Source: Cetorhinus maximus (Eukaryota). From it: 64,000 nt of DNA. A program made the translations under genes and the position numbers. Where the stretch lies: assembly GCF_964194155.1 (NCBI RefSeq), contig NC_135899.1, forward strand, positions 21,514,001-21,578,000, written 5' to 3'. This document shows, piece by piece, positions 470-63,550 of this stretch; position 1 is the first letter of the stretch, and the number at the start of each line of letters is the position of its first letter. Below the pieces are notes generated by a model that saw nothing but the letters and a program-made list of their open reading frames with translations, was not told the origin of the DNA and ran no database searches.

Positions 470-1232
470 ACCAACAAAAACAGAAACAGAAATACCTGGA
501 AAAACTCAGCAGGTCTAGCAGCATCGGTGGAGAAGAGCACAGTTGATGTTTCGAGTCCTCATGACCCTTCAACAGAACTAAGTAAAAATAGGAAAAGGGT
601 GAAATATAAGCTGGTTTAAGGGGGGCTGGGGGGTTTGTTGGGATAAGCAGCCAGTGATAGGAGGAGATAACCAAAAGATGTCACAGACAAAAGAACAAAG
701 AGGTGTTGAAGGTGGTGATATTATCTAAAGGAATGTGCTAGTTAAGAGTGGAGAGCAGGACAAGCAAGGTACAGATAGCTCTAGTGGGGGTGGGGTGAAA
801 TAAGACTAAAAGGGCATAAAAGGTATAGATAAACGATGGGTGGAAATACATTTAAAAATAATGGAAATAGGTGGGAAAATAAAAATCTATATAAATTATT
901 GGAAAAAACAAAAAGGAGGGGGAAGAAACGGAGAGGGGGTGGGGATGGAGGAGGGAGTTCAAGATCTAAAATTGTTGAACTCAATATTCAGTCCGGAAGG
1001 CTGTAAAGTGTCTAGTCAGAAGATGAGGTGCTGTTCCTCCAGTTTGTGTTGAGCTTCACTGGAACAATGCAGCAAGCCAAGGACAGACATGTGGGCAAGA
1101 GAGCAGGGTGGAGTGTTAAAATGGCAAGCGACAGGGTGGTCTGGGTAATGCTTGCGGACAGACCGAAGTTATTCTGCAAAGCGGTCACCCAGTCTGCGTT
1201 TGGTCTCTCTAATGTAGAGGAAACCGCATTGG
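470..1232 (-). mobile_element. Penelope-like element, 5'-truncated: GIY-YIG endonuclease C-terminus plus 3' terminal region
   Basis: Minus strand 1232->960 reads QCGFLYIRETKRRLGDRFAE*LRSV...PVACHFN...KLEEQHLIF*LDTLQPSGLNIEFNNFRS (YIG/ET half of GIY-YIG, with stops), then a pyrimidine-rich UTR and the hammerhead-bearing terminus. Confidence 0.9.
541..579 (-). ncRNA. Minimal type-I hammerhead ribozyme motif (variant core)
   Basis: Reverse complement AGTT-CTGTTGA-A-GGGTC-ATGAG-GACTC-GAAAC-ATC-AACT: stem I AGTT/AACT, stem II GGGTC/GACTC, CUGnnGA and GAAA cores. Confidence 0.7.
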
Positions 1233-1267
1233 GTATTTTAAGACCTTGATATTTTAAGACCTTGACT

Positions 1268-1935
1268 GTAACAAAATAAAATCAACTTCGACTAAACATT
1301 ACTTAGTAAGAAAGTAATACATTAAAGTACAGAACAAATATGCCCCCTTCAACTTCTTAATAACACAATGGAAAACCCCATGCCTCATTTATACATTATA
1401 TTACACTCTCCATAGACATGTAATCTTTTAAGTTTAAAATACAACTCCTCTTGGTGTTAACAGGATTCCTCTTCCTGCTTCGCTGAGGTGAATTTTCCAG
1501 TGTCCTTTCAGCAAAGTCCTCTTCACTCAACTCTTTGAGCATAATCAAATGGACTCCCCATTGTAAGGTTCCTTCTGGTGATTCTGTGGCTTCTAACCCC
1601 ACAGTCCTTGTTCCCATGGGTTCCATCCTCACTGACCCTTCACTTTCTTCCCCAAATCCTTCGATGCGACTGATTCTGAGTATCTGAAGTCTGGCAACAG
1701 CAAGGCCAGCTGCTTCTTTCTTTATGTCCAGGTGTTAAAGCTCACACCTGACTTTGAATAAGTGTTGATCTAGACCCCCTGTTTCCATGGCAACTGGTTC
1801 ACATAGATTTGTCGCTGGGCAGACCCCTTTCCAGAACTTTGTTTTACCTTGAATTAAAAAAGTTTAAAACATAACCGACTTTATGAAGTCTAGTGGTAAT
1901 AATGCTGTGTCCTAGTTCTAGATTCCCCCATGAAG
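1268..1935 (-). mobile_element. Unclassified repeat, possibly a degraded LTR
   Basis: Begins TGTAACA and contains the X-box palindrome GTTTCCATGGCAAC (1781-1794); no TSD confirmed. Confidence 0.3.
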
Positions 1936-1939
1936 ATTC

Positions 1940-2235
1940 AGCATCTACTCTGTCAAGCCCCCTCAGAATCTTTTATGTTTAAATAAAATCATCTCTCATT
2001 CTAAGTTCCCAATGAATATTGGTCCAACATGCTCAACCTTTCCTCATAAGACAACCCCCTTCATCCCAGGGATCACCCTCATGAACCTACTCTGAACTAC
2101 TTCATGTAGTTCATGTTAGAATATCCCTCTTTAAATAAGGAGACCCAAACCGTACATAGTATTCTAGGTTCCCCCACTAATGCCCTGGACAGTTGTAGTA
2201 AGACTTTACTTTTATACTCCAAATTCCTTGCAAAA
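1940..2235 (-). mobile_element. CR1 LINE 3' fragment
   Basis: Similar to 7950-8220 (ctctgtcaagcccc...aacctttcctcataagacaaccc). Confidence 0.8.
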
Positions 2236-3567
2236 TGTTCTTTAAAACTCGCCATTCTCTCAGGACCAATGTGTTTGCCTGTCTGTTAGTTTGGTGTTGC
2301 TTGTTTGTTTAATGCTATTCACATTCATGTTTAAGAATTGGAAAACTTCAGTAGCTGAAGATTCTTTGAGAATGATTAACCTTATCAGAAGGGTGTTAAT
2401 GGTCTGAATGGGCATCTATGAATCACATTTGTGATGAAGACGGGATATTTCTGAGTATTCTCTTCAGTCAGCAGAACTTAAAGATTACAACTACTGTTTT
2501 TTTGGGGTAAAGGGAAAAGCAAAAACGCAGTTAGTGAGGTGACTGACTAGGCATTTATGTGCTTGTATGTGGCAGGAAGAATTTTCAATGGAATTTAGAC
2601 ACCATCCTGCAACTTCAGACTCCACTAACGAAATGCCAGATACATTCAGAAAAATGATAACTCTCTTCAGGTATTCCATCGAAGTGAGTTGACTAAACAA
2701 ATGTGGGAGATTGTACAGAATGAACAGCACAGACGGTGGAAATGCTATGCACAGTAGAAATTGATATTTGAGGAAGAAATTGCACAACAGTGTACAGAAC
2801 AATGATCTCATTGCCGGATGATTTGAGTGGAAGGTGAATAACTTTGATTTCATTTGGAAAGCGGCAGAGAACTTTCCATCTGCAAATACTGTCAATCACA
2901 CCTTTATATTCAGCTTCATGTTGGAAATAGAAAATCTTCCAGTGGTGTGCGGTTGTATTTTTCCTTCACAATTCTTTTTGTAGGTGGAGCACCAAACCTG
3001 AGGGGAGTTCGGAGGAACATTAAATCTTAAAGCAATTGTAAATATGTAGTAAAAGAAAGAAAATTCTAAATAAATTGTTCAGAATTAATCAAACTGGCTG
3101 GTATGTTTTGTTGCTAATGTTTATACTGTAACTGTGTAAAGATGCTGACTCATGCCCCTTCGATTGGAATATGCTGATTGTTGCTGTCTCCTCTCCACCA
3201 CCCCCCTCAAATCTATCCTGAAGGAATTAATTCATACTCCCTCCTTATTCCTGAGGTGCTGGCTGGTGGCATTCCCCTGATATGACTCGTGCACCTCCAG
3301 TTTAAAGTTACTGATTCATACTCTTCCAGTATTTGCTAACAATGCTGACTTGTGGGCTACTACTTCATGAACACTGGCACTCAAGGAACTGCCCCTTCAG
3401 GAAAGAACAATTTGTGAGAAAATGCATAGAAAGAGAAACTTTTTGAAAGTCCTTTTTAAAAGTTACGAAGCATAGAGATTACATAAATGCTGCTCACAAC
3501 TGCAAACATCAATGGTTGTTGAATTTTGTCTATTAGTATTTAGTTAACTTTCTGCTGTTGTGAACTT

Positions 3568-3870: not shown

Positions 3871-3879
3871 TCCCTGATA

Positions 3880-4870: not shown

Positions 4871-4879
4871 GCTGAGGAA

Positions 4880-6968: not shown

Positions 6969-7605
6969 CTGTCTTGAGTTACAGACAACAAACATAGTCT
7001 GCAATTTCCTAGTATTTTTCAGCAAACATAATGTGGAATGGACAAGGACAAACAACATCTGCTCTCCCAGTGAGTAGCCTAGGACTGGTTCTGGCTGCAG
7101 GTTCTCTAGAACCACAGCTTATCTGAGGCAAGAGAAACCTGGTCTACCTGGAATCTTCGAACGACAGAATTGCAGCCAAGCAATGTACCTGACAATAGTA
7201 GATGGGCTTAGTTGTAAATGAATGACTACCGCTAGGTCCAATCAATTGTAAGTGCAGATAATAGATTGACATGGGCAGTAGCCAGTGATTGGCTGGCTAT
7301 CTGCTGCTTTTCTTTTAGCTATCCTTCATTTTATAACAGGTTTAGCTTGTGCTGGTCTGTTTCTGATCTATCTGCCTACAGTCCTCCATCTCTTGGTCTG
7401 GCCTGCCCTTCACTTTCTACTGTTATGATGTTTGGTTTGGCCTGACTGTCACTGGCACTGCTTCAATTCAATAATTTCTGCTGCCCCCAATTTGCAGTTA
7501 CTTTTCTTTTCCTGTTGGTTGGATTCTTTTCAGTGTGACCAGCCTGGATGATTAATACAGGTTCCTTCCTCTTTGGTCAGAACAAGCTTCACATTCATAG
7601 CTCCA

Positions 7606-10600
7606 AATAAGAACATACAAATTAGGAGCAGGAGTAGGCCACTCGGCCCCTCAAGCCTGCTCCGCCATTTAATAAGATCATGGCTGATCTGGTTGTAACC
7701 TCAACCCCACATACCTGCCTACCCCCAATAATGTTTCACCCCCTTGTTAATCAAGAATCTATCTAGCTCTGCCTTAAAAATATTCAAAGACTCTGCTTCC
7801 ACTGCCTTTTGGTGAAGAGTGTTCCCAAGACACTCTACCCTTTAAGAGAAAAAGTTTCTCATCTGTCTAAAATGAGCGACCCTTATTTTTAAACAGTGAC
7901 CCCCTAGTTCTAGATTGTCCCAAAAGAGGAAACATCCTCTCCACATCCACCCTGTCAAGACCCCGTAGGATCTTAAAGGTTTCAATCAAGTCGCTTCTTA
8001 CTCTTCTCAATTCCAGTGGATACGAGCCTAACCTGCCCAACCTTTCCTCATAAGACAACCCGCCCATTCCTGGTATTAGTAAACCTTCCCTGAACTTCTA
8101 ATGCATTTACATCCTTCCTTAAATAACGAAGACCAGTACTGTACACAATACTCCAGATGTGGTCCCACCAGTGCCCTGCACAACTGAACATAACCTCCCT
8201 ACTTTTGTAATAAATTCCCCTTATGTTAAACAGTAACATTCTATTAGCTTTGCTAATTACTTGCTGTACCTGCATACTAGACTTTTGTGATTCATGCACT
8301 AGGACGCCCAGATCTCTCTCAATCTCAGAACTTTGCAACCTCTCACCATTTAGGTAATAAGCTTTTTTTATCCTACCTGCCAAAATGAACAATTTCACAT
8401 TTGCCCACATTATATTCCATTATCCAGATCTTTGCCCATTCACTTGACCTATCTATATCACTTTGTAGCCTCCTTATGTCCTCTTCACAACTTACTACCC
8501 TACCTATCTTTGTGTCAACAGCAAATTTAGCAACCATTCCTTCGGTGCCTTCATCCAAGTCATTTATATAAATTGTAAAAGTTTGAGGCCCCAGGACTGA
8601 TTCCTGTGTCACACCACTCGTCACATCCTGACAACCAGAAAAAGTCCCATTTATGCCAACTCTCTGCTTCCTGTTAGCTAGCCAATCTTCCATCCATGCC
8701 AACATGTTACCCCCTATACCATGAGCTTTTACTTTCCGTAATAACCTTTGATGTGGCACTTTATCAAATGCCTTCTGGAAATCTAAGTACAGTACATCCA
8801 CCGGTTCCCTTTTATCCACAGCACATGTGACTCCTTCAAAGAACTCCTATAAATTGGTTAAATGTGATTTTCCTTTCACAAAAGCATGTTGACTCTGCCT
8901 GATTGCCTTGAATTTTTCTAAGTGCTCTGCTATAACATTTTTAAAAATAGTTTCTAACATTTTCACTATGACAGATGTTAGGCTAACTGGCCTATAGTTT
9001 TCTAATTTCTATCTCCCTCTCTTTTTGAATACAGGAGTTATATTTGCTATTTTCCAATCCAATGGAACCTTCCCCGAATCTAGGGAATTTTGGAAAATTA
9101 AAACCAGTACATCAACTATCTTACTAGCCACTTCTTTTAACACCTTAGGATGAAGTCCATCCGGACTTGGGGATTTGTCAGCCCACAGCCCCAAGAATTT
9201 GCTCAATGCCACTTCCCTTCCACTTCATAATTTTAATGAGTTCCTACCTCCTTTCCGTTTTCTGATTTGCAGCTATTTCCAGGATGTTACTTCTATCCTT
9301 GTATCATGAAGACTGAAGCAAAATACCTGTTTAATTCATCCACACTTTCTATAGGACCAATGCTCACTTTCTTAAATCTTTTCTTATTTAAATTCCTATA
9401 GAAACTCTGACTATCCATCCTTATATTACTAGCTAGCTTTCTCTCGTACTCTAATTTTTTCCTACTTATTAATCTTTTTGTCATTCTTTGCTGTTTTTTA
9501 TCTTCTTTCCAATCTTCTGACCTGCCACCCATCTTTGCATAATTATAAGCTTTCTCTTTCAGTTTAATATTGTCTAACTTTTTTAGTTAACCACGGATGA
9601 TGGGCCCTCTCCTTGGAGTTTTCCTTTCTCATTGGAATGTATATATTCTGAAACATCCCTTAAATGCCTGCCACTGAACCTATATTGACCTATCCCTTAA
9701 CTTCATTTGCCTGTTCGCTTTAGCTAGCCCTGCTTTCATGCCCACATAATTGCCATTATTTAAGTTTAAAATATTAGTATTGGACGCACTTGTTTCTCCC
9801 TCAAAATGAATGTAAAATTCAATCATATTATGATCGCTGCTTCCTAAGGGTGCCTTCACAATGAGTTTATCAATTAATCCTATTTCGTTGCTCAATACCA
9901 GGTCCAGTATAGCCTGCTCTCTGGTTGGCTCCAGAACGTGCTGTTCGAAGACACTAGCCCGAAAACATTCTATGAGCTCCTCATCTACCCTACCTTTGCC
10001 CATTGATTGTTCGAGTCCATATGTAGATTAAAATCCCCCATGATTATTGCTGTAACTTTCTAATAAGTTCCCATTATCTCTTATATGCTCTGTTGTACCA
10101 TGTATTTACAATTAGAGGGCCCTTACACCATTCCCACAAGTGACTTCTTGCCTTTATCATTTCTCATCTCAACCCAAATTGCTTCTGCATCCTGGTTTCC
10201 TGAACTCTCTAATGTGCTAATACCAGCATTAATTGACAGAGCCATCACTCCACCTTTTCCTAACTTCCTAAATGTCATGTACGCTTCAATATTCAGGTCC
10301 CAGTCTATGCCATCCTGTAGCCATGTTTCTGTAATGGCTATCAGATCGCACTTATTTATTTCTATTTGAGCTAGCAGTTCACCTGTTTTGTTTCGAATCC
10401 AACGTGTATTTAGATACAGAACCTTTAGTTTTGACCTTGTATTATTTTCATAGCGTCCAGCCTTATCTGCTGATTTACTCTTTGATTTGTACTTTCTATC
10501 CTTTCCTGTCATGGTCTGTTTATCATTTCCCATATTAATACCTTTTTCTCTTGCCTTGTCTCTACTGTTTGGTTTACCACATCTTCCAAATCTGATCCCT

Positions 10601-15445: not shown

Positions 15446-16091
15446 CTTACATTGTTAGAGAACATTTTTTATGAGAAGCAGTGCTGTACCTGCCACAAGA
15501 ACTAGTTTTAAATTTTTCTTAGATATTTCCGTTGAATAGATCAGTAACTCAACTTTGAACCTTTTAGGCTTGCATGTGGTGCTGCTCACTGGTTAAAATA
15601 TGAGCCTTCAGGGGGGTCCCTTTTTAATATACTGGAGTATCCTCACCTGGTTTTTTGCTAATGGAGAAGGATGGTCTCTCTAGTTTTAAATGTAAAATTT
15701 TCCCTTTAATTTCTATGATGATTCACATGAATTTGCTTTGTTACCTGCCCCCTTCTAACTATGAGTATCCCTGTCCACCTTCTGTGCACAAGAGTAAAAA
15801 TAAAAATAGTCCTTGAAACAGTTACGTTTTCTGATTGTTTGCTAAATAGTAAAGAAATCCAATAGTTTCATCTGGCTGAGACAGGCGTTATCTGATTAAC
15901 CTATGGGTGTCACTACCACAACCCCAGGCCTTGAGAATAGATTAACTAGTGACACTCTTGGCAATAAAGACATATTTTCTGGCTGTTTGGCTTCACACAC
16001 TTGAAGAACAAAGGTGATTTTAGAATTGGAAAACTTGCCCTACCATCTTCAACGATTTGTGCACATATGCCTATGTTCCTTCTGCCCCTAT

Positions 16092-17830
16092 TTATTCATG
16101 GCATTTGGGCTTCACTGGCTGGGCCAGCATTTAATGCCCATCCCGAGTTGCCCTTGAGAAGGTAGTGATGAGCTGCCTTCTTGAACTGCTGAAGTTCATG
16201 TGCTTTAGGTACACCCATAGTGCTGTTAGGGAGGGAGTTCCAGGATTTTGACCCAGCAACAGTGAAGGAATGGCTATATATTTCCAAGCCAGGATGGTGA
16301 GTGACTTGGAGGGGAACTTCCAGGTGGTGGTGTTCCCATGTACCTGCTGCCCTTATCCTTCTAGATGGAAATGGTCATGGGTTTGGAAAGTGCTATCCAA
16401 GGAATCTTGGTGAATTCCTGCAGTGCATCTTGTAGATGGTACACACTGTTGCTACTGTGCATCAGTGGTGGAGGGAGTGAATGTTTGTGGATGTGGTGCC
16501 AATCAAGTGGGCTGCTTTGCCCTGGGTGGTGTCAAGCTTCTTGAGTGTTGTGGGAGCTGCACTTATCCAGGTAAGTGGGGAGTATTCCATCATACTCCTG
16601 ACTTGTGCCTTGTAAATGATGGACAGGCTTTGGGGAGCCAGGAGGTGAGTTACTCATTGCATGATTCCTAGTCTCTGACCTGCTCTTGGAGCCACAGTAT
16701 CTATATGGCTAGTCCAGTTCAGCTTCTGGTCAATGGTAACCCCCAAGATGTTGATAGCGGGGGATCCCATGATGGTAATGCCATTGAATATCAAGGCGTG
16801 ACGGTTAGATTCTTTCTTGTTGGAGATGGCCATTGCCTGGCACTTGTGTGGTGTGAATGTTATTTGCCACTTGTCAGCCCACGTCTGGATATTGTTCCAG
16901 TCCTGCTGTATTTGGGCATGGACTGCTTCAGTATCTGAGGAGTCGTGAATGGTGCTGAACATTATGTAATCATCAGCGAACATCCCCACGTCTGTGCAAT
17001 CGTCAGCGAATATCCCCAGTTCTGACCTTATGATGGAAGGAAGGTCATTGATGAAGCAGCTGAAGATGGTTGGGCCGAGGACACCACCCTGAAGAACTCC
17101 TGCAGTGAAGTTCTGGAACTGAGATGACTGACCTCCATCAACCACAACCAGCTTCCTTTGTGCTAGGTATGACTCCAACCAGTGGCGAGTTTTCCCCTTG
17201 ATTTACATTGACTCCAGTTTTGCTCGGGCCCTTTGATGCCACACTCGGTCAAATGCGGCCTTGATGTCAAGGGCAGTCACTCTCACCTCGTCTCGGGAGT
17301 TCAGCTCTTTTGTCCATGTTTGAATCAAGGCTGTAATGATTGTCATGAACTGAGTGGCTCTGGCGGAACCCAAACTGGGTGTCAGTGAGCAGATTATTGC
17401 TCGGCAAGTGCCGCTTGATAGCACTGCTGATGACCCCTTCCATTATTTTATTGATGATTGAGAGTAGAATGATGGGGCGGTAATTGGCCAGGTTGGATTT
17501 GTCTTGCTTTTTGTGTATTGGACATATCTGGGCAATTTCCCACATAGCTGGGTAGATGCCAGTGTTGTAGCTGCATTGGACAGCTTGGCTAGAGGCGCAA
17601 CACCTTCTGAAGCACAAGACTTCGGCACTATTGCCAGAATATTGTCATGGCCCATAGCCTTTGCACTATCCAGTGCCATCAGCTGTTTGTTGATATCATG
17701 TTGAGTGAATTGAATTGGCTGAAGATTGGCATCTATGATGCTGGGGACTTCTGGAGGAGGCTGAGATGGATCATCTACTTGGCACTTCTGGCTGAAGATT
17801 GTAGCAATTGCTTCAGCCATATCCTTTGCT
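16092..17830 (-). mobile_element. LINE-B (CR1/L2-group) RT and 3' end
   Basis: ALDIKAAFDRVWH, GVLQGGVLGPTIFSCFINDL, FADD, WADKWQITF; 3' tail gctggcccagccagtgaagcccaaatgccatgaataaa. Confidence 0.92.
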
Positions 17831-22465: not shown

Positions 22466-22561
22466 ATGAAGAGTAATACGGACTCGAAATGTTAACTCTG
22501 TCTTCCTCTCCACAGATGCTGTCAGACCTACTGAGAGTTTTTCCAGCTATTTTTGTTTTTG
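22466..22561 (+). mobile_element. Short PLE-terminal element with partial hammerhead
   Basis: atgaagagtaatacggactcgaaatgttaact...gatgctgtcagacctactgag; flanked by 15-bp direct repeat tttcagaatctgcta (22451-22465 and 22562-22576). Confidence 0.85.
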
Positions 22562-27853: not shown

Positions 27854-27964
27854 TTCTACTTCCCTTTAGCTCTGAAGAAGTGTCATATGGACTCGAAACA
27901 TTAACTCTGTCTTTCCCTCCACAGATGCTGTCAGACCTGCTGAGTTTTTCCAGCACTTTTTATT
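27854..27964 (+). mobile_element. 111-bp PLE-terminal element inserted into LINE-B
   Basis: 14-bp TSD tctgtctatcacat at 27840-27853 and 27965-27978. Confidence 0.88.
27868..27906 (+). ncRNA. Minimal type-I hammerhead ribozyme motif
   Basis: AGCT-CTGAAGA-A-GTGTC-ATATG-GACTC-GAAAC-ATT-AACT: canonical CUGAnGA and GAAA cores, with stem mismatches. Confidence 0.72.
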
Positions 27965-28802
27965 TCTGTCTATCACATGCTGCTTCGGCTGTTGAGCATG
28001 CATATGGTCCTGTAGTTATGCAGTTGTAACTTCATCAGTCGGCACCTTGTTGTTAGGTATGACTGGTGCTGCTTATAGCATGATCTCCTGCACTCCTTGT
28101 TTAAAAAAGGCATGGTCCTCTGGCTTGCTGCTAATACTAGAATGAAGGAATATGCTGGGCCATGAGGTAACAGATTGTGGTTGAGTATAATTCCATGGCT
28201 GCTGATGGTGCACATTGTCTCATGGATGACCCCCAGTACTAAGCCGCTGGGTATGCTCTGAGTTTATCCTATTTAAAACAGAGGTACTGCCACATAGCAT
28301 GGATCATATCCTCATTGTGAAGATGAAACTTTGTCACCATCAGGACTACGTTGTGGTCACTCCTACCAATATCAGCATTGACAGATGCATTTGCGGCAGA
28401 AAGATTGGTCAGGGCACGATCAAACAGGTTTTTCCCTCTTGTTAGTTTTCTCACCACCTGCTGCAAGCCCAGCCTGGCAGATATTTTCTTCAGAACTCAG
28501 CTAACTCAGTCAGTAGTGTTGCTACCAAGGTGCTTTTGGTGAGGAGGACTAAGACCCTTCACCCAGAGTACATTCTGTGCCTTTGATACCTTAGTGTTTC
28601 TTCCAAGTAATCTTCAACATGGACAAATACTAATTCATCACTTCAGGAAGGGTGTTAGGTGGTAATCAGCAGTAAGTTCCCTTAACCATGTTTGACATAT
28701 CATTAGACATCATGGGATAAAGGGTCAATGTTAAGGACTCCCAAGGCAACTCCCTCCCATCTGTATATCACTGTCCTACAACCTTTGGTAGTCTGTGCTG
28801 CG

Positions 28803-30057
28803 AAAGATAAACCATGTTTACCCAATTTATTGAAGTTCTTTGAAGGAGTCACATGTGCTGTGGATAAAGGGGAACTGGTGGATGTACTGTACTTAGATTT
28901 CCAGAAGGCATTTGATTAAGTGCCATATCAAAGGTTATTGCAGAAAATAAATGATATCGGGGGTAACATAGTGGTGTGGATAGAAGATTGGCTAGTTAAC
29001 AGGAAGCAGAGAGTTAGCATAAATGGATTTTTTTCTGCCTGGCAGAATGTGATGTGTGCTGTGCCACAGGGATCAGTGCTGGGCCCTCAACTTTTTACAA
29101 ATTATGTCAATGACTTGGAAGAAGGGACTTAAGGAATGGTTGCTAAGTTTGCTGTCGACCCAAAGATAGGTAGGAAAGTAAGTTGTGAAGAGGACATAAG
29201 GAAGTTACAGTGGGATGTAGGTAGGTTAAGTGAGTGGGCAAAGATCTGGAAAATGGAGTATAATGTGGGCAAATATGAAATTGTCCACTTGGGCAGGATG
29301 AATAAAAAGGAAGCTTATGATCTAAATGGTGAGAGATTGCAGAACTCCGAGGTTCAGAGGAATCTGGGTGTCCTAGTTCACGAATCACAAAAGGCTAGTA
29401 TGCAGGTACAGCAGGTAATTAGGATAGCTAATAGAATGTTATCATTTATTATGAGGGGAATTGATTACAAAAGTAGGGACATTGTGCTTCAGTTGTACAG
29501 GGCACTGGTGATACCACAACTGGAGTATTGCGTATAGCACTGGTCTCCTTATTTAAGGAAAGATGTAAATGCATTAGAAGCAATTCAGAGAAGCTTTACT
29601 GGACTAATACCAGGAATGGGTGGGTTGTTTTATGAGGAAAGGTTGGACAGGTTGGGCTTGTATCCACTGGAGTTTAGAAGAGTGGGAGGTGACTTGTTTG
29701 AAACCTTTAAGATCCTGATGGGTCTTGACAGGGTGGATGTGTAGAGGATGTTTTCCCTTGTGGGAGAATCTAGAGCTAGAGGTTACTGTTTAAAAATAAA
29801 GGGTTGCCCATTTAAGACAGAGATGAGAAGTTTTTTCTGAGGGCTTTGAGTCTTTGGAACTCTTCCTCAAAAGCATAGTTTTTGAATATTTATAAGGCAG
29901 AGCTAGATTGATTCTTGATTAACAAAGGGGTGAAAGGTTATTGGGGGCAGGCAGGAATGTGGGGTAAGTTTACAGTCAGATCAGCCATGATCTTATTGAA
30001 TGGCGGAACATGCACAAAGGGCCGAGTGGCCTACTGCTCTTAATTCGTGTGTTCATA
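28803..30057 (+). mobile_element. CR1 LINE 3' 1.25 kb (same subfamily as the 7606 copy)
   Basis: CLPNLLKFFE, YLDFQKAFD, VPQGSVLGPQLF, KFAVDPK, LYRALVIPQLEYCV, plus 3' tail. Confidence 0.95.
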
Positions 30058-30184
30058 AGTTGAAGGTCAGCATGCATAGGGGTAATATGGGAATGGGACT
30101 TGCATTGAGATAAGATATGGGCAGTAGAGTTTACAGAGGGTAGAATATGGGAGAACAGCCAGGAGTGCGCCATAAGATTCATCA

Positions 30185-33889: not shown

Positions 33890-36620
33890 TTTGATGTTCT
33901 CTTTCATGTTGCTGTCATTCTATAAACTCTTATTCAGCATGGACTCAACAGCTACAGCTCCTGCAATGCCCAGGTTGATTTCAGCATTAAATTACAGATT
34001 GCTGGTGCTTGTGGAGCTTAGGTATTTGAAGTTATCAACAGTCTTCGGCATCACATTGTCAGTGCTGATTCATGGTGGTATGGCAACGCCTGGACCATGA
34101 TATTTATCTCCATGATGCTGATGGTCTAACCAAACTCTGCACAGGTGTTCCTCAGTATGACATACTTGTGTGGCAACATCACAATTGTAATTGCTGCAGT
34201 CACCCTTTATCTTTTACAGGGTCACAATCTTTGCCTTACGCATACCCTGAGGCACCACCACACCCCCACCCCACCAACGCTCCAGATGAGACAGAGATGT
34301 TTTTGCAGATGCTGCAGGAGTGCCATTTTTTTCCTTGCTCGATGAATTCAGGTGGTATAGCATTGTCATCTGGAACTTTGCCAATGGCAAGCGGGTCAAT
34401 AGCTTTGCTAAGTTCCTCTGCTGCAGGTTTGATATCCAGCTGTGCCATGAAAGACAAGGCAAAGTGCCTAGAGCTCCATCAGTGATGCTGTTCTTCTTAA
34501 AGTACAACTCAGGTTAGTGTTCCACCCATTTCTTCAACTCTTTATTACAGTCGATGTTGACCTTGCCTGCCTTTGTTTTCAGTGGAGCTGTTTTCTTTGC
34601 TGATGGACCTGTTGCCTGTTTGATCTTATTATACATGCCCCTAGCATTCCTGTGTTGGAGGACATCTAGATATTCTGAAAAAGTTATGCCAGTTGTCATT
34701 GGTGCACCGTATAGTTATCTGTTGGACTTTACTTTGAGCAGTTTTTTGTGCATTCAGTCGCCTCGTCCAGACCTCTCGTGATTAATGACAGCGAATTACA
34801 TGTCTTGAAAGACATACAACAATGTTAATCTCGAACCAGTCAGAGTTTTTTTTTCACTTTTGCTCCCTGTATGTTCAGAACACTGTCTTGTAAATGGCTC
34901 CCCAAAACATGTTCTATTTCACTTTTACACTCTATGAGAGAATGCCGGAGAACAGCTGTTCAATGAAATTCAGGAATGGTTGGTTTGCATCTGGGTAAGA
35001 AATATGGCTGACGTTGATACGAGGAAGGCCTTTCTGCTTTGAATGATAAAGCTTCAAGACTGGCAACCTAACTTGACTGAATACCAGGGAGTGATCTGTA
35101 TTATAGCCAGTGCTGTGGTAGCTGTGTGTGTGGAGACTACGTCTGGTGTTGAGCAGCTCCAGCTGATGCCAATGCTCTGATTCTGAATGCCTCCAGGATA
35201 CCTTAGTTGGTTTGTTCTGAAAGAAAGTGTTAGTTACACCAAACTTGTGGTAGTAGCAAAGCTCAAGAAATCTCTAAAGATAAAAACAAAAAACTACTGC
35301 GGATGCTGGAAATCCAAAACAAAAACAGAATTACCTGGAAAAACTCAGCAGGTCTGGCAGCATCCTGAAGGGTCATGAGGACTCAAAACGTCAACTCTTT
35401 TCTTCTCCGCCGATCCTGCCAGATCTGCTGAGTTTTTCCAGGTAATTCTGTTTTTGCTCAAGAAGTCTCTATCCATTTTAATTTATTTTTCCCAAGCCAT
35501 TATATCCAGATAGGAGGGCCATGCCTCATGGTCCATGCCCAAACTTGACTTGAAAGCCCAAAGATGTAAAGACTTCTATCTTGAGGATTCTGCTGATAAC
35601 AGTGTCAATCTTCTCGTAGAACTGCTCTTTCATCACTGTAGTGGAGCAGAGTGTAGGAGTAAAGGAGGTTAGCTGGCTCTTTTTGAGTTGAGAGGCGGAG
35701 GGAGAGAACATTTGTCAGGGTCTCTATCACCAACAGGAGTGAGTTCCTTATAGCAAAGACTGCATGCAACTCATTCTTTTCTTCTGAACTCTTTCCCTGA
35801 TAGATGAACGTGGAATATTTTTCTTTTAGTAGCCCACACTCCGTGAGCCTTGTCTTTTGTAGGGAAGCTCTGTCAATATTCAGCAAGTCAAGTTCCATGT
35901 TGATCACAGCTGTCCTGCAGGCATTATTGACCATCTGCAAGTCATCTGTCAGTCTTGTGCACATGTTCTGACATTCTAGCTTTCCAATGAAGAGTTGGCA
36001 TCTTTTGTTTCATTTATTTAATTTTTTTCTGCCTGGTGCTATGGATTAGTTCCACTTTTTGAGGAAGAACACTAAGTTCCAAGCACCCATTGAAGCACAT
36101 GAGCCGGAGCAGATCAGCAGCTTACTAGTTGGGAGCTGCCCAGTTTGAGGTAGGTCTTAGCTGACCAGTCGAATGCAACGGTCCTTCTCACCATCAGAAT
36201 CAGTCATAGCACCCATTTCCTAGGCCAATCAAGTTGGGCTTATTGCTCATAACTCCCATCTCTTGTGTCGTGTTAATGGTCTGCAGCCAAATTGGAGTGT
36301 GCTGTCTTGGCTGCAAGCCTGGATGAAGTTTGTGGTGACCCTGGGCTGCCCAAATTTCAGGGTCTCCCCCTCAATCTTTCCCGTTGGGTCCAAAGGAATG
36401 AAGAGCAATATATTTGGCAGCGGCTAGGTTGCAGAAGTTGCTAGAAAGATGACATTTAGACAACAATGTGCCTTTGGGTTCCACGCCAGATTTTTGTCAG
36501 GGTTTATTTCTTTAACCTTCAACCCTGCCCACATATCCACAAGGCAGGGGAGCTATTTTCCCATAGTTGGGAGTTTGGTTCATGAGTGCCAGGGCACCCA
36601 TAGCCGGTGAGCCTGCAACC
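33890..36620 (-). mobile_element. RTE-clade LINE, internally deleted
   Basis: WNVRTCAQ/MCTRLTDDLQ...INMELDLLNIDRASLQKTRL (RTE APE), KEQFYEKID, RGMYNKIKQATGP, ELSKAID..GKVPDDNAIPPE. Confidence 0.88.
35277..35455. mobile_element. PLE-terminal fold-back element containing a hammerhead remnant
   Basis: Inverted arms aaaaacagaattacctggaaaaactcagcaggtctggcagcatc / gatcctgccagatctgctgagtttttccaggtaattctgttttt; loop carries gaagggtcatgaggactcaaaacgtcaact; 16-bp TSD gctcaagaa(a/g)tctcta (35261-35276 and 35456-35471). Confidence 0.88.
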
Positions 36621-38574: not shown

Positions 38575-38862
38575 CCTACCTTAGGCCTTACACTTTGGCC
38601 TTACATCATTAACTCTTTTGTTATTTAATCACTCTGCCTTCCACTCAATTACAGACCTTCACCTTTGGCCTTTTCCTCCCTTCTGCATTTCACTTTCTTA
38701 AAACCTGCTACGTTTCTAATTTTTCCCAGTTCTGATGAAAGGTCATCAGCCTGAAATGCTCACATTGTTTCTCTCTCCACAGATGCTGCCTTACCTGCTG
38801 AGTATTGTAGCATTTTCTGTTTTTATTTCAGATTTCCAGATCCACAGTATTTTGCCTTTGTC
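38575..38862 (+). mobile_element. PLE 3' terminus (older subfamily) with hammerhead motif
   Basis: AGTT-CTGATGA-AAGGT-CATCA-GCCT-GAAATGC at 38728-38760, then ctccacagatgctgcc...cctgctgag...tttcagatttccag. Confidence 0.8.
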
Positions 38863-43709: not shown

Positions 43710-45740
43710 GATGATGGCGACTCAGGTTTGCAAGTTTTTGGCAAAAGTCTTGATGTAGCTGAACAGGCCAGCTTTAGATCCACAAATCACTGGGCACATG
43801 GGGCAGGACAATTCCACAGGGTTGCAGAATCTGGAGTGCAGGGTTTTCTTTGTTTTTTTTCCTTCTCTGCTCTTGTTCTCCCTCATCATTAAGGCAATGA
43901 GACTTGAAGCATGATGGAGATTGATGGACAAGTTATCATTCTAAATGATTGGTAGCAAAATCCTCCCAGTGACTAATGCCAATGCTGTCACACTTCAAAG
44001 AGGGTCCCAAGAGTGTTTTGTGAACACAGTATATTTGTGTTTCCCTGGAACGTTAACCATTTGAGAGATGAAAGAACAGGACTTGGTGGAGTAGATGATT
44101 TTGAGCCATAAACATACAGTGACTGTCAATTGAGATGGTTTTGCAGGAGTTTTACAAGAATATTTGTGGACCTTTGATGGATGAGTATTCAGCCAGGAGA
44201 TCAATTGTTCACCATCTTTGTTGGCGTTGTCTTTAATGTGATGTGAAGTTAAATCCCGATTTGCAAGTCCAATTGTAAATATTTATATGAAGCTGCTGTT
44301 GGAAGGATGGCTGAAGGCAATGGCTTTGTGGTGTGCTCGCTGATCCTTTAGGGATCTGACTCTATTTTCCTCAAATATTAAGTTTCCTTGATGCCAGAGA
44401 TTTCTCTATATGGATCTGCCCAGGAGTGTTTTTTCCACATGTAGTGGAGCCCAGCTTAAATGCTATGAGAATGGCTTTCAGATTATCTTTCAAATACTTT
44501 TTTCTTATGGTGCAGGCTCCTGTGTTCAGATGGATGTAGAATACCACTACTGGTATATGGGAATCCTCTATGTGAGCTGCAGGGGCAACCCAGTGAAGCT
44601 GACTTCTGATAAGCACGGTCTCCATACAAGGTACGCAGCATAATGCAAGAATTTTGGAGTTGGGTATTTTGTCCTGACACTAGGGCCAGGATTTTATGGC
44701 CCTGCTGCAGCGTGTCTGCCCCCGGCGGATTTATTTAAATCACCAATCAGTTTGGCAGGATCGTAATGTCCTGCTGGGCGGAGGCGCCCTATAATCTGGC
44801 CTTGATGTTGCATCTAGATATTAAAAAATGAAGATTGAATGCATCTGCTTGCTTTATGGTTGCAAGTAGGTTGTCCACGCCTTACAGCTATAGAGAAGTG
44901 ATGTGAGAACCACTGCTTGGTAGTCTCTGATATTTGCTTTGAGACAAAGCCTCTCCAAACTCTCTGTGAGAACTTGCCAAATACTGAGTTTGGTTTTGCC
45001 ATGTGATGGGCAATTTCATCCTCCAATGCGGTGTTGTTGGAGAGGATGCTTCCAAAATAGCAGAACTTCTGAACTGACCTGAAGGATGTATTATCGATTG
45101 CGACTATGGGTCTTGGAGTTTGTCACAAGGAGCAGGTTGGTACAAACTCCCTTTCTTTTCCAGAGCTATTATAAGACTAAAGCACCCTGAAACTTGGGAA
45201 AGGCATTCAACAAGCAGATGTATATCCTCCAAAGTGTTTGACATGAGAGCACAGTTTTAACAAATAAGGGTTCATTTATTAGTTGTTCCATGATTTTTGT
45301 GCAAGCCTTGAACCTTTTAAAGAGGTTGCCACCTGGCCTAAACTGAATGTCTACTCCTATGTTGAGATCTTTGAGTGCATACAAGAGCATGGCTGAAAAG
45401 TGGATAGCAAACAGAACTTGCATCAGTGCACAAACTTCAGTGGTGCCATTGATAACTGAGAAGGTACCTGATGAGGTACCATTCTGCATCATACTGGCCA
45501 TCATGTTGTCATGAAATAATGGATGACACTGATCATTTTTTAGGGCAGCCATATTTGTACAGCACCCTTCATGGTTTACTGCATTCAAAAACCTTTGATA
45601 GATCAGCAAACACCATGTAGAGGTACTTGTTCTTTATTGTTTTCCATCTATTTAATTGCTTGTTGCAGGCCTCCCATTGATGGTCATCCATTCATGGATT
45701 CTATCACACAGCACTAAGTACTAACCTGGAGCGTAATTTT
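43710..45740 (-). mobile_element. RTE LINE RT and C-terminus
   Basis: EDEIAHHMAK.NSVFGK, SQLHWV..HIEDSHIP..VFY, KDNLKA, terminal CPMCPVICGSKAGLFSY. Confidence 0.85.
44683..44802. mobile_element. ~120-bp GC-rich MITE with Harbinger-like termini inserted in the RTE
   Basis: Imperfect TIRs ggccaggattttatgg / cctataatctggcc; sharp GC contrast with the flanks. Confidence 0.55.
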
Positions 45741-45744
45741 TAAA

Positions 45745-46640
45745 AATTCATTTATGGGATGTGGGCTTCGCTGGCTGGGCCAGCATTTATTGTCCAACCC
45801 TAGTTTCCGTTGAGAAGGTGGTGGTGAGCTGCTTTCTTGATCTGCTGCAGTCCACGTGCTGTAGGTACGTCCACAGTGTTGTTAGGGAGTGAGTTCCAGG
45901 ATTTTGACCCAGCGACAGTGAAGAAACGGAGATATATTTCCAAGTCAGGTTGGTGACTGACTTGGAGGGGAACTTCCAGGCGATGGTGTTCCCATTTATC
46001 GCTGCCCTTGTCCTTCTAGATGGTAGTGGTCATGGGTTTGGAAGATGCTGTCAAAGGAGCCTTGGTAAATTCCTGCAGTGCACCTTGTAGATGGTCCATA
46101 CTGCTGCTACTGTGTGTCAGTGGTGGAGGGAGTGAATGTTTGTGGATGTGGTGCCAATCAAGTGGGCTGCTTTGCCCTGGACAGTGTCAAACTTCTTGAG
46201 TGTTGTGAGAGCTGCACTCATCCAGGCAAGTGGAGAGTATTCCATCACACTCCTGACTTGTGCCTTGCAGACAGTGAGCAGGCTTTGGGGAGTCAGGAGG
46301 TGAGTTACTTGCCACAGAATTCCTAGCCTCTGACTTGCTCTTGTGGCACAGTATTAATATGGCTAGTCCAGTTCAGTTTCTGGTCAATGGTAACCGTCAG
46401 GATGTTGATAGTGGAGGATTCAGTGATGGTGATGCCATTGAATGTCAAGGGGCAATGGTTAGATCCTTTCTTGTTGGAGATGGTCATTGCTTAGCACTTG
46501 TGTTGCTCAAATGTTACTTGCCACCAGTCAGCCCAAGCCTGGATATTGTCCAGGTCTTGCTGTATTTGGACATGGATTGCTTTAGTATCTGAGGAGTCGA
46601 GAATGGTGCTTAATATTGTGTAATCATCAGTGAATGTCCC
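45745..46640 (-). mobile_element. LINE-B 3' fragment
   Basis: Colinear with 16095-16990. Confidence 0.92.
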
Positions 46641-55058: not shown

Positions 55059-55517
55059 ATTAATGAGAATAATGAAGAATGCAAAGAATAATAGTTGTTG
55101 ACAGCTTTGATGAACGTAGCTTGTGTTATTTTGATAATAGTTAGCTTTTTTAATTCACCATTATAATGACATATTAACATGCAAAGCGATATGGAATTTC
55201 ATCGCTGTGATTTATCCATGTATGACATGACAGCTCTCTAAGATACAAGCAGTTGAAATTGATTTGAAATCAATTTCTGTTTATGTAACTGATCAGAAAG
55301 GCAATTCTTGAAAAAAATGCTTGCGTAGGCAGAAAATGTTATATCCATTGAAGATATTCACTAATAAAAGACATGCAGTAATCGTTTGTCAATGCAACTG
55401 AATTTATAACATACACAAATAAATTAGCCATTTTGTAACTAATATATGTTTTGCTTTATTAGTCGACAAGATTGCGGAGATAAAAGGTAATAAATCTTCA
55501 ACCTCTTAACTTTGTTT

Positions 55518-57505
55518 TATTTATTCATTCATCGATGTGGGCTTTGTTGACAAGGCCAGCATTTACGTTGAGAAGGTGATGGTGAGCCACCACCTTGAAA
55601 CGATGCAGTCTTTGTGCTGTAGGTACACCCACAGTGGTGTTGGAAAGGGAGTTCCAGGATTTGACCCAGTGACAGTGAAGGAATGTCAATAATGTTCCAA
55701 GTCAGGATGCTGTGTGACTAGGAGGGGAACTTGATGGTGGTGGACCTGTTGCCCTTGTCCCTTGAACTAGTGAAGGTCGCGTGTTTGGAAGGTGCTGTTG
55801 AAGAAGCCCATGGTGAGTTGCTGCAGTGCATCTTGTATATGGTACACATTTCTGCCAGTTTGCGTCAGTGGGTGGAGGAAGTGAATGTTGAAGGTGATGG
55901 TTGTGGTGCCAATCAAACAGGCTGCTTTGTTGTGAATGGTGTTCAGCTTCTTGAGTGTTGTTGGAATTGCACTCATCCAGACAAGAGTAGTGCTGACTTG
56001 TGTCTTGTAGTTGGTGGGCAGGTTTTGTGGAGTCATAGGTGAGTTACTCTTCTCAGAATTCCCAGCCTCTGATATGTCCTTGTAGCCACAGTATTTATGT
56101 AGCTGTCCAGTTCAGTTTCTGACCAATGGGTAACCCCTTGGATGTTGATAATGGTGGGATTCAGTGATGTCAAGTGAGGATGGTTAGATTCTCACTTGTT
56201 GGAGATGATCATTGCCTGGCACCTGAATGGCATGACAATTACTTGTCACTTATCAGCCCAAGCCTGATTGTTGTCCAGGTCTTGCTGCATATGGACAGGG
56301 GCTGTTTCCGTATCTGAGGAGTTACGAATGGTGCTGAACATTATGCAATCATCAATGAGCATCCCCACTTCTGAACTTATGATCGTGGAAAGTCATTGAT
56401 GAAGCAGCTGAAGATGGCTGGGCCTAGGAGACTACCCCAAGCAATTCCTACAGTGATGTCCTGGGACTGAGATGATTGACATCCAATAGCCACAGCCATA
56501 TTCCCATTTACTAGGTATGCCATCAAACTGTGAAGAGTTTTCCCTCTGATTCACCTTGACTTCAATTTTGCTAGGGTCCCTTGATGCCACACTTGGTCAA
56601 GGGGCAGTCACTCTTGCCTCACCCCTGGAGTTCAACTCTTTTATCCATATTTGGACCAAAGCTGTAATGATGTCAGGAGCTGAGTGGCCTTGGCAGAATC
56701 CAAAATGAGCGCCATTGAGCATGTTATTGCTGTGTAAGTGCTGCTTGATAGCAAAGTCAACAATACCTTCTACGACTTTGCTGATGACTAAGAGTAGACT
56801 GATGGGGCAGTAATTGGCTGCGTTGGGTTTGTCTTGCTTTTTGTGGACAGGACATACCTGAGCAATTTTCCACATTGCGGGGTAGGGATGCCAGTGTTCT
56901 AGCTGTACTGAAACAGTTTGGCTAGAAGTATGGCTAGTTCTGGAGGCAAGGTCTTCAATATTGTTGCTGGATGTTTTCAGGGACCATAGCCTTTGCAGTA
57001 TCCAGTGCCTTCAGCTGTTTCTTGATATCACGTGGAGTGAATTGAATTGGCTGAAGACTGACATCAGTGATGCTGGGGACCTCAGGGGGAGGCTGAGACT
57101 GATCATTCACCTGGCACTTGTGGCTGAAGATGGTTGCAAATGCTTTAGCCTTGCCTTCTGCACTGATGTGCTTGGCACCCCCATTATTGAAGATGGGAAT
57201 ATTTCTGGAGTACCCCCCACCCCCAACTCTCTGTTAGTTGTTTAATTGGCCACCACCATTCACGACTGGATGTGGCAGGACTGCAGAGCTTAGATCTGAT
57301 TTGGGATCACTTAGTTCTGTCTAGCACATTACTGCTTCCGCTGTTTGTCCTGTGTTGTAGCTTCACAAGGTTGACACCTCAGTTTTTAAGGTATGCCTGG
57401 TGCTACTCCTGGCATTCTCTCCTGAACTCTTAATTGACCCAGGGTTGATTCATCGGCTCAATGGTAATGGCAGAGTGGGGGCATGCAGAGCCATGAGGTT
57501 ACAGA
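55518..57505 (-). mobile_element. LINE-B ~2 kb
   Basis: WKIAQVCPVHKKQDKPNAANYCPISLL...KVVEG, FGFCQGHS; tail at 55520-55560. Confidence 0.92.
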
Positions 57506-60995: not shown

Positions 60996-61045
60996 CATTG
61001 TCATCATCGTCATCATCATCACCATTATCGTCATCGATGTCATTA
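60996..61045. repeat. Imperfect (CAT)n microsatellite
   Basis: cattgtcatcatcgtcatcatcatcaccattatcgtcatcgatgtcat. Confidence 0.8.
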
Positions 61046-61899: not shown

Positions 61900-62830
61900 A
61901 TAGCTCTGACTCTATGAACAGAATGCACTGTCGCCCCTAATTTTCCCTTTTACCTCTAATGCGTTCGCATGACATTTCAGAGTTATCTTTAATGCATATG
62001 TAGAAAGAGGGAAAGAAGGCGAGCAAGGCGCACTGAGCAAGTTGGATGAACAACATTTACGGGACGAAGGTTGCCAGCAAAGGGGGATTGCATTTAACCA
62101 ACTTCGCGCGAGATTGTAGTCGAAAATCAGTTGGCACAAATAATGGAAAACGTTATTCCTCGGTTATATTATACCTGCTTTAGTGAGATCTTATGTGAAG
62201 AGTCATGCTGTGATTTTGGCATTATTTAATTTCTGGATACAGCTGAAGGTAGCTTGCACAGTTGAGAACAACGATTCTCTTGACAGACAAACGCAATTTA
62301 ATAACCTTGTTAGTAGTTGTTTACATTACAGTAAATCAGAACAAATCGATTTTTCTGAACCTCAGAATTAACTCAACTTCAGGACTCAGGTAAGGAGAAC
62401 ACTTCCAGTTTCCCATTCTTCCCCCAGCCCTTGTGAGAAATACGTTTCTCATCAGTTGTATTGTGTCAGAGTTTGAAGCGTATGGACTTGATCTTTCTGG
62501 TTAACAGAAATGCAGAATTCGTTTAGTCCTGATTTGATTGAGCCGGCATCGCAACCAAGTGTTCTTGCTTTTATTTTTAATTTACAGTTTTAAAAAAAAT
62601 CCGCTAGGGTGCGTTGGTTTTTCCAGCAATTCAGCCACGTCAGTGCAAAAGAGTGGGGAATTTCAAACGCAAATAACATCGAGTTTTTGCGATTTTTTGT
62701 GCTGGTTTGAAGAAACATCGCGCCGGAAGCCTGCCGCACCAACAAATCTGACCAAGCCTCCAGGTTGAGTCATAAGGCAATTTCCCGCTAATTGCCAATG
62801 TTTGCTGACCTTTAAGGAGGCTCTTAGAGT
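61900..62830. promoter_or_regulatory. TE-free, CpG-retaining promoter-like region
   Basis: Many CpGs; minus-strand GACTACAATCTCGCGCG (~62105-62121), GCCACGTCA (62634-62642), CCGGAAG (~62723), TGAGTCA (62766), CCAAT (~62795). Confidence 0.45.
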
Positions 62831-63034
62831 TAGATTTTTTTAAACGTGCAACTGCAGTAACGAGTACGGTTAAACTTTTAAAAACATTTTAAGATTTTAC
62901 TTTGCTAAGAAACTGAGTACCACTGAAACTATTAAGAATGTGCTGCGCAGTTTTCAGTCAATTTTAGTTATTTAAAATCAGGTTACTTACTAACACTTAT
63001 TGCAATGTTTGTTTTTGTGATAAACCCATTTACA

Positions 63035-63240
63035 ACTGTGTTAATAAAACGGCACCAGGTTACCACTCCCAAATATATCAAAGAATATTGATAAGAAATA
63101 AGAAACAAATAAGTTCAGAAGAATTGCCCAATTACTGTATTAATAAAATGGCACCAGGTTACCATTACCAAGTATATCAAAGTATATTAATAAATGTAAG
63201 AAATAAGAAACAAATTAGTTCTAAAGAATTGCCCAATTAC
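63035..63240. repeat. ~100-bp tandem duplication
   Basis: actgt.ttaataaaa.ggcaccaggttacca...aagaaataagaaacaaat...gaattgcccaatt at 63035 and 63134. Confidence 0.9.
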
Positions 63241-63411
63241 GTTTATTCATAAAAGATTTTACTTTTATTATTATTCAAATGGGTTCCCGTGAATGCTTAG
63301 TGAATGGAATCAATTCTTGAAATTAACGAACTTTTGAGCGACGTTTTTGAGAAAGGTCATAATTTTCATCAAAGTGAAACTTCCAGAAGCATTGCTAAAT
63401 GTTGTCACTTC

Positions 63412-63550
63412 AAATTAAAAACAGACTCTGCTGGAAAAACGCGGCAGGCCTGGCAGCGTCTGCGGACAGATACTGCCAGACCTGTCGAGTTTTCCCAGCG
63501 CGTTCTGTTTTTAATTTCAGATGTCCAGCATCTGCAATATTTTGCCTTCA
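63412..63550. mobile_element. PLE-terminal fold-back palindrome without hammerhead
   Basis: aaattaaaaacaga...ctggaaaaac...cagg.ctggcag.gtctg / cagatactgccagacctg...gttttcccag...tctgtttttaattt, then cagatgtccagcatctgcaatattttg. Confidence 0.8.

Follow-up and report, generated by a model that had tools for sequence, protein, structure and literature searches.

In a 64,000-nt stretch of the Cetorhinus maximus genome (NC_135899.1, positions 21,514,001 to 21,578,000; hereafter the window), a module of about 100 bp recurs at six loci and carries a hammerhead ribozyme motif at several of them. Is this module a mobile family of its own, as the initial annotation proposed, or the end of a larger element? 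Very probably, the six loci are 5'-truncated ends of an autonomous, endonuclease-bearing (EN+) Penelope-like element (PLE), with the excess of copies of about 100-145 bp likely produced by run-off of reverse transcriptase (RT) at the front edge of the hammerhead.

The six loci and their parent element

All six loci lie at about the positions first given for them (Table 1). Self-BLAST among them gave E values of 1e-5 to 1e-25, far beyond chance, and a profile of the module found 8 matches at these loci and 102 in 864 kb of position-chosen DNA, with 0 in the reversed control. The view that each locus holds one module of ~100 bp is right for most of them, but 35277-35455 and 63410-63549 are two-arm, head-to-head pairs. 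The 5' ends differ among the six loci, with none in common. The copy at 477-1234 matches a longer natural copy at 93% over 757 bp, and neither a target duplication nor an end repeat of at least 8 was found for it; the GIY-YIG remnant described on it was recovered by comparison with a longer natural copy. The copy noted at 38720 is longer than earlier stated, since its homology starts at ~38593, with 74% to copies bearing GIY-YIG remnants. The terminal direct repeats described for three short copies were confirmed (15 exact, 14 exact and 15/16). The copy at 27854-27964 sits in an older interspersed repeat, and a paralogue of this repeat near 57,300 has the 14-mer once, which represents the empty site.

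Table 1. Features of the Penelope-like copies in the window
Feature	Positions	Strand	Details	Basis
5'-truncated PLE copy	477..1234	-	holds end of GIY-YIG ORF, a low-complexity 3' UTR and the hammerhead module; lacks tail	BLAST vs 30 young loci
GIY-YIG endonuclease remnant	962..1234	-	in-frame stops	tblastn, 89% to aa 323-413 of L053 ORF; translation
Minimal type-I hammerhead motif	541..579	-	U at position 6, A replacing G16.2; predicted cut 545/544	profile alignment
Short single copy	22466..22561	+	begins within hammerhead core; target duplication 15 bp exact, 22451-22465/22562-22576	
Short single copy	27854..27964	+	starts 14 bp ahead of hammerhead (27868-27906); target duplication 14 exact, 27840-27853/27965-27978	
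Head-to-head pair	35277..35455	.	inverted arm + tail 35277-35364, without hammerhead; direct arm 35365-35455 begins within core; target duplication 16 bp, 15/16 matching, 35261-35276/35456-35471	
Older-subfamily pseudo-LTR fragment	38593..38859	+	decayed hammerhead, tail; no target duplication found	
Head-to-head pair, very short arms	63410..63549	.	both arms truncated downstream of hammerhead; tail on direct arm; no clear target duplication	

The module forms the 3' end, or pseudo-LTR, of an endonuclease-bearing Penelope-like element encoding RT and GIY-YIG. As had been proposed, it is PLE-derived, abundant and equipped with a minimal type-I hammerhead; one young 24-mer of the module has 75,855 exact matches genome-wide. 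Long copies have an ORF with RT (YIDD) plus a C-terminal GIY-YIG directly upstream of the module. The module closes every copy, and in full-length units it continues via the tail straight into the ORF. Among 25 loci chosen for the 5' part of the ORF, 11 showed module and tail leading into the ORF N-terminus, which is the pseudo-LTR arrangement. The longer copy L053 has a 413-aa open frame with YIDD and LYIGET motifs. The Pfam matches of this RT-EN frame, to GIY-YIG at E 6e-4 and to RVT_1 at E 0.06, stayed below the curated cut-offs, and a PDB sequence search with it gave no match.

In this ORF a Cx4CxxC linker, one mark of the Neptune clade, precedes the GIY-YIG domain. According to PMC8557442, a CX2-5CxxC linker before GIY-YIG occurs in Neptune and also in Nematis and is absent in Penelope/Poseidon. 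The element looks Neptune-type by this motif, and the Poseidon clade was dropped as a candidate on the same motif. The traits of EN+ PLEs that were found are the RT/GIY-YIG ORF, the pseudo-LTR, the inverted partner with a one-sided tail and a continuum of 5' truncation with target duplications; an inverted 5'-truncated copy and a one-sided 30-40-bp tail are standard in PLEs, as stated in the same paper. EN+ Neptune-type PLEs (PMC8557442, PMC3846280) are alike in RT with C-terminal GIY-YIG with CCHH and a Cx4CxxC linker, in the hammerhead pseudo-LTR, heavy 5' truncation and adjacent inverted copy, and in the one-sided tail of 30-40 bp, target duplication and partial tandems with the pseudo-LTR running into the ORF. 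The rotifer PLE examples have duplications of 8-10 bp, whereas those here are mostly 14 bp.

The hammerhead motif

On the evidence of aligned copies, judged against a layout of core CUGANGA...GAAA, stems I and II and a palindrome at 15.2-16.2, the minimal hammerhead is real at the family level, and stem II covaries between subfamilies. The covariation, for which the initial annotation had called, shows in counts over 53 hammerhead-spanning copies: pair 41-55 is G-C in 29, A-U in 13 and G-U in 7, and pair 42-54 is A-U in 19, G-U in 14 and G-C in 12, as sequence counts without tree control. The relaxed core (CUG..GA, GAAA and U16.1) is retained in 23 of 53 hammerhead-spanning copies, and a U or a C occupies core position 6 in 17/53, including the young subfamilies.

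Five window copies had been said to keep some or all of the hammerhead. Two of them (579-541 and 27868-27906) do so with a relaxed core, both without the G of the ACGU palindrome, and the remaining three are incomplete: the copies at 22466 and 35365 begin partway through the core, and the one at 38720 is missing U16.1 together with stem I's 3' strand. No window copy has a fully intact hammerhead. Scanned against Rfam with E values of up to 5 allowed, the window gave no hammerhead family, which is expected of minimal variants. Stems I and II form in the predicted fold of 541..579, which is not significant alone (z -1.2). Folded as single strands, five copies from the window and a young copy gave nothing significant against shuffles (z -1.6 to +2.0); therefore, folding energy alone is no evidence here.

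Minimal hammerheads of PLE pseudo-LTRs (PMC4209133) likewise have a short helix I, one additional base ahead of stem II and a palindromic ACGU for helix III. They also show the same thousands of solitary copies, which the authors regarded as truncated PLEs, and the same subfamily-level covariation. The young subfamilies here differ from them by U or C at core position 6, and self-cleavage here is putative.

Short copies compared with long copies

The initial annotation held that the copies were inserted by retrotransposition with their own target duplications. This was borne out: duplications with a score of at least 11 were found at 18/77 loci vs 2/385 mismatched controls. In a further count of 57 duplications, both arms of a pair being counted, 26 are 14 bp, in long and short copies alike. 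The 3' ends fall into two classes spaced about 35-40 bp, depending on whether the tail of 30-40 bp is present. These classes, the 14-bp duplications and the head-to-head arms are common to short and long copies and are all familiar from PLEs. Head-to-head arrangement was observed at 25/77 loci (1.2-kb rule). Only one arm is tailed in 22 of 25 young pairs (one pair listed twice), and arm lengths within a pair correlate (25 pairs, rho 0.67, p 3e-4). The arms of pairs are matched in length and sequence. Mobilisation by LINE machinery, which had also been suggested, was not upheld, as there is no poly(A), A-rich or simple-repeat LINE-type tail and the PLE-type tail and arms are found instead.

A separate non-autonomous family, SINE-like or retrozyme-like, would consist of short copies that, once transcribed, cleave themselves in dimeric form and become circles, with PLE or LINE proteins putting them back into the genome. 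We consider it very improbable. The great number of short copies, their own target duplications, their preferred 5' end and the covarying stem II are in its favour. In addition, there are a few head-to-tail dimers and trimers with a unit of 86-100 nt (L200, L228, L229 and L230), and animal retrozymes are PLE derivatives and have been reported from one chondrichthyan (bioRxiv 10.64898/2026.07.22.740005). However, no short copy among 16 was strictly nearest to another short one; 11 were nearest to a long copy and 5 tied. The mean distance was 0.124 between short copies vs 0.123 between short and long copies, and the short copies carry the subfamily variants of the long ones. The head-to-tail junction pattern, in one junction form for the young subfamilies, has 4 genome matches vs 15,271 for the intact hammerhead. 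Arrays with head-to-tail hammerhead units were 2 of 41 in 1.40 Mb of module-enriched loci, and the tandem repeat occurs at 0 window loci. The U or C at core position 6 of young subfamilies and the avoidance of the cut site by 5' ends (see below) also argue against it. Thus, with 5' ends running on to RT-containing copies, no short-only cluster and shared duplications and tail classes, the proposal of a discrete retrozyme-like family is not supported, and for the window copies the retrozyme reading is largely refuted. Metazoan non-LTR retrozymes (PMC7229834, bioRxiv 10.64898/2026.07.22.740005) are alike in being non-coding and PLE-related, with a type-I hammerhead and long target duplications. 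They are head-to-tail repeats with a hammerhead per unit and circular expression, whereas those in the window stand singly or head-to-head and have minimal motifs, most of them damaged.

5' ends at the front edge of the hammerhead

We mapped 5' ends in 88 consecutive young copies from the first 3 Mb of chromosome C1 (one young-subfamily group). The 0-point is the first base of the young 24-mer, stem I begins at -63 and the cut site is at -29/-28. The initial annotation took random 5' breakpoints as a sign of ordinary truncated PLEs; the breakpoints are non-random, forming a continuum with one sharp peak that whole-genome counts support. The ends are continuous up to about 1.8 kb, reaching RT-containing copies; 38/88 extend past -250 and 14/88 past -1000. 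In -65..-55, 19/88 ends were found, that is, 2.6% per nt vs 0.1-0.5% elsewhere, about 10-fold. The peak lies at the A-G-U-U strand of stem I with a spread of ~10 nt, and the cut-site zone (-34..-25) holds only 1/81 5' ends. At L236, a near-full-length unit and its inverted arm both start at -68. When single-arm copies only were counted, paired arms not being independent, the peak held 5/38 (p about 0.005 vs an assumed 0.3% per nt).

Exact counts in the genome drop with the start of the pattern, from 15,271 (-59) to 12,132 (-63) and 9,569 (-66). Genome-wide, 712 copies have a wrong base at -64 and 703 at -62. The upstream pseudo-LTR is missing in 30/30 sampled -64 variants and 27/30 sampled -62 variants; therefore, these are true ends and not point mutants. 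The base before -63, where an excess of G could be the signature of a cap, is about half G and half A as judged by eye in the variant list. Furthermore, 34 of 53 hammerhead-spanning copies in the position-chosen sample lack the upstream pyrimidine tract; therefore, by this rough measure, the peak also exists in older subfamilies. No sharp 5'-end excess at the front edge is described for EN+ Neptune-type PLEs in the consulted portions of PMC8557442 and PMC3846280, whereas it is present here.

The peak most likely reflects run-off at the 5' end of the RNA, a step that we infer. Following the biochemistry of Poseidon PAc from Anolis (PMC11167929), the protein of the element would nick both target strands, and RT would start from two internal positions a little downstream of the hammerhead, giving two 3' end classes and two arms. 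If the template were the leader of a transcript starting at the front edge, copying would stop after 100-145 nt; if instead a longer transcript supplied its 3' pseudo-LTR as the template, copying would continue to random truncation. The ribozyme would then be cargo in the stubs, copied uncut. In PAc, there are two internal RT starts, both strands are extended and ribozyme cleavage is dispensable for insertion in vitro. PAc has the same two 3' end classes set apart by the tail, about 100-145 nt downstream of the hammerhead start, the same use of both target strands and a hammerhead copied uncut. Against the analogy, PAc belongs to another clade by its linker motif, and the ORF here apparently starts after the tail rather than in the hammerhead. 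Where short copies have their 5' ends is not a subject of the PAc paper.

With its pyrimidine tract, CTAAY-like motif and YAG, the peak sequence fits a 3' splice site as well as an initiator. The peak could thus mark a 3' splice acceptor in the same elements, at which bound splicing factors or structure just upstream halt RT on unspliced RNA. We regard this as rather unlikely, even though the pyrimidine tract and YAG are retained in all subfamilies that keep the upstream sequence. The intron of D. virilis Penelope stops at the matching point of its own hammerhead, where helix I has its 5' end (PMC4209133), and the start site is 121 nt (46 + 75) further upstream (PMC4209133, PMC2377424); introns are retained in genomic PLE copies (PMC8557442). 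However, no more than about 10 nt separate the branch-point-like motif from the AG, and of the young copies reaching the site most (54/73) continue past it. A search of 18 non-inverted junction flanks for a constant first exon ahead of the peak found none, the longest common suffix being 7 nt and the longest match to the upstream element 12 nt; therefore, spliced RNA is not the template. Contigs of the relevant ones among 23 runs, only guessed to be RNA, were compared with a long copy; none of the 15 joints listed of 311 was a GT..AG joint leading to the acceptor-like site, the module end being skipped as repeat. Their summed depth across the peak, on a 211-bp piece, rose 13-fold, 24-fold and 2.6-fold in runs guessed to be RNA and 1.3-fold in a large unlabelled run; contigs show neither starts nor levels, and this rise is therefore not counted as evidence.

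It is quite improbable that the hammerhead fold itself fixes the breakpoints by stalling RT or making the cDNA fold back. Some partner arms do terminate within stem II (-51 to -55) or are joined via stem I words. However, the 3' stem strands (-25, -37) are what RT encounters first, and the peak lies at -63, where the whole motif is already copied; only 8/81 ends lie in -54..-25, and the fold is predicted to be weak, at about -10 kcal/mol (z -1.2).

Within the run-off reading, we tentatively suggest, with somewhat less than even confidence, a product like 'strong-stop' DNA. A protein dimer would copy one RNA leader onto both cut strands from two starts, with run-off at the 5' end of the front-edge transcript, and re-priming would give the rare head-to-tail dimers and trimers of ~95 nt, which would be retrozymes at birth.

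The family itself is ordinary, as PLE ends with minimal hammerheads have been known since 2014 and the link between PLEs and retrozymes since 2020 and 2026. The useful part is the geometry, which bears on the completion of PLE insertion, the nature of the inverted arm and the role of the hammerhead. A peak of about 10-fold at the front edge and not at the cut site, together with matched paired arms, indicates that the ribozyme is copied uncut. This geometry predicts a capped 5' end at -63 and run-off there in vitro. If the strong-stop reading is true, hundreds of thousands of stubs would record both template ends and the second-strand step of PLEs.

Module copies and their parent element

The initial annotation placed a ~100-bp module at six places in the window, and all six were recovered, linked to each other by self-BLAST (E 1e-5 to 1e-25). 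The copy at 38720 starts further back, at about 38593, and the loci 35277-35455 and 63410-63549 are head-to-head pairs, in which two arms form one insertion. The three target duplications described there are real, and an empty site for the 27854 copy is visible in a paralogous repeat. A module profile, iterated from one natural copy, was run on 864 kb of sequence selected by position: the window, 20 nearby 10-kb pieces and 60 pieces across other chromosomes. It gave 102 hits there and 0 in reversed sequence, which extrapolates roughly to ~470,000 copies in the 4.0-Gb genome. One 24-mer of young modules has 75,855 exact genome matches.

Young relatives extend upstream by 0.1 to 2.8 kb, and coverage drops steadily from a fixed 3' end. 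Of 25 loci selected by the 5' part of the ORF of the parent Penelope-like element (PLE), 11 have the module and an optional 3' piece, the tail, leading straight into the ORF. Therefore, the module is a pseudo-LTR, the final piece of one copy and the leader of the next. A linker before GIY-YIG has been described as marking Neptune and Nematis, as opposed to Penelope/Poseidon (PMC8557442). The parent element has a linker of this kind, which would place it with this group by motif. At the tail/ORF junction of three loci (L236, L238 and L241), an ATG of the module opens a short Cys/Phe-rich frame with a stop just past the tail. The following ATG, at which the long ORF seems to start, lies in the same frame; this is possibly an upstream ORF or read-through. 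At another locus (L045), the target duplication of the module copy sits in sequence similar to the 73-bp tandem repeat of the window.

The hammerhead motif

The hammerhead is spanned by 53 of the 102 module copies. Its order (stem I, CUGANGA, an extra A, a 5-bp stem II, GAAA and the palindrome ACGU) is the minimal type-I layout reported for PLEs (PMC4209133). Stem II covariation, proposed as a test of the motif, was found; in two pairs, both partners differ from subfamily to subfamily (G-C 29, A-U 13, G-U 7; and A-U 19, G-U 14, G-C 12 in the 53 spanning copies, counted as sequences and not as events). A relaxed core is kept in only 23/53 of these copies. In 17/53, U or C replaces A at core position 6, a change found in the most recently active subfamilies. 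Two copies in the window keep the core, both without the G of the palindrome. An Rfam scan of the window gave no hammerhead match, and no fold of the window hammerhead copies was significant.

Features in the window and at loci elsewhere in the genome (L-numbers)
Feature	Location	Strand
Core position 6 changed, young-subfamily example	window 569-575	-
Head-to-tail multimer	L200:1247-1530	
Head-to-tail multimer	L228:1228-1661	-
Head-to-tail multimer	L229:1324-1648	-
Head-to-tail multimer	L230:1436-1701	
Perfect 16-bp tandem duplication exactly at 5' junction of a long copy	window 1234-1265	
73-bp tandem repeat, about 4.2-4.7 copies, 94% matches	window 1-341	
Many other interspersed repeat copies, 70-88% identical, probably LINE fragments	window 7605-8880, 16089-17829, 23656-25620, 28799-31007, 32603-33851, 45737-46640, 55515-57393	

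A peak of 5' ends at the front edge of the hammerhead

Ends were surveyed in the first 88 of 100 listed 24-mer matches, consecutive along one chromosome, with coordinate 0 at the first base of the 24-mer, stem I starting at -63 and the cut site at -29/-28. The 5' ends lie beyond -1000 in 14 copies, in -1000 to -250 in 24, in -250 to -66 in 16, in -65..-55 in 19, in -54..-25 in 8 and closer in 7. Thus, breakpoints are not random, a pattern that would have refuted the short family of the initial annotation if it had been random, and pile up in a peak at -65..-55, where the hazard is 2.6% per nt versus 0.1-0.5% elsewhere; they are not the ends of one discrete short unit. Only 1/81 lies around the ribozyme cut site. 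The peak is also seen among single-arm copies alone (5/38, p about 0.005 assuming 0.3% per nt). Whole-genome pattern counts accord with it (15,271, 12,132 and 9,569 for starts at -59, -63 and -66), although their fall is partly due to point mutation. Sampling of copies that mismatch the pattern at -64 or at -62 showed true ends in 30/30 and 27/30, respectively. In the position-chosen set, the upstream pyrimidine tract is missing from 34/53 hammerhead-spanning copies by a rough measure. No report of the peak was found in a literature search of main texts that covered few subscription papers; earlier publications already describe the motif, the anatomy of the insertions and the link to retrozymes.

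The simplest cause, which we hold slightly more probable than all others together, would be that reverse transcription runs off at an RNA 5' end at the hammerhead front edge. It is favoured because both arms of a pair often end together at the peak site, units of multimers restart there, one near-full-length unit starts at -68, and the site fits an initiator consensus (YYANWYY). The leading alternative is that the site acts as a splice acceptor, since it consists of a pyrimidine tract and YAG, and a D. virilis intron ends at the equivalent place, 121 nt past its start site (PMC2377424). However, peak copies have no first exon in common, and a spliced template is therefore unlikely; a block of copying by splicing factors bound at the site remains as a rival. 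If copying stalled on the hammerhead fold, stops would be expected on the 3' side of the fold, and these were not seen.

Paired arms, multimers and retrozymes

The 3' ends of the 88 young copies form two classes, near +39 or near +78, which differ by the tail. Target duplications were found in 57/83 testable rows, 26 of them of 14 bp (both arms of a pair counted), and flank kilobase and 100-bp copies alike. In the position-chosen set, 18/77 loci reached a score of 11 versus 2/385 controls. In vitro, a PLE protein of Anolis has been reported to cut both target strands and to extend them, from two internal starts bounding the tail and without need of ribozyme cleavage (PMC11167929). Such a protein, extending both strands from two start sites, would produce both the two 3' classes and the two arms. 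The tail is on one arm only in 22/25 pairs, the lengths of paired arms correlate (rho 0.67), and, among 12 pairs whose sequences were listed, most have private variants common to both arms, as expected if both arms copy one RNA, although later gene conversion may be the source of their likeness. Another published model explains palindromic junctions of this kind by self-priming and an antisense template (PMC3846280).

The proposal of a separate short family found no support. Three second arms were set aside, and for the remaining 16 peak copies the nearest neighbour was a long copy in 11, a tie in 5 and strictly a short copy in 0, and every stem-loop variant is present in both classes. The short copies are very probably stubs of PLEs. 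What defines a retrozyme is a tandem array of hammerhead-bearing units together with circular RNA (PMC7229834; bioRxiv 10.64898/2026.07.22.740005), and the window copies fall outside this definition. The latter source argues that retrozymes derive from PLE termini and reports them in one chondrichthyan. One head-to-tail junction form of the short unit was searched and has 4 genome matches. Short head-to-tail dimers or trimers with an 86-100-nt unit are rare, and some lie behind an inverted arm; their junctions are identical in L200 and L230 and different in L228. These multimers, including those of L229, could fit the tandem part of the retrozyme definition, and a handful of loci outside the window might fit it.
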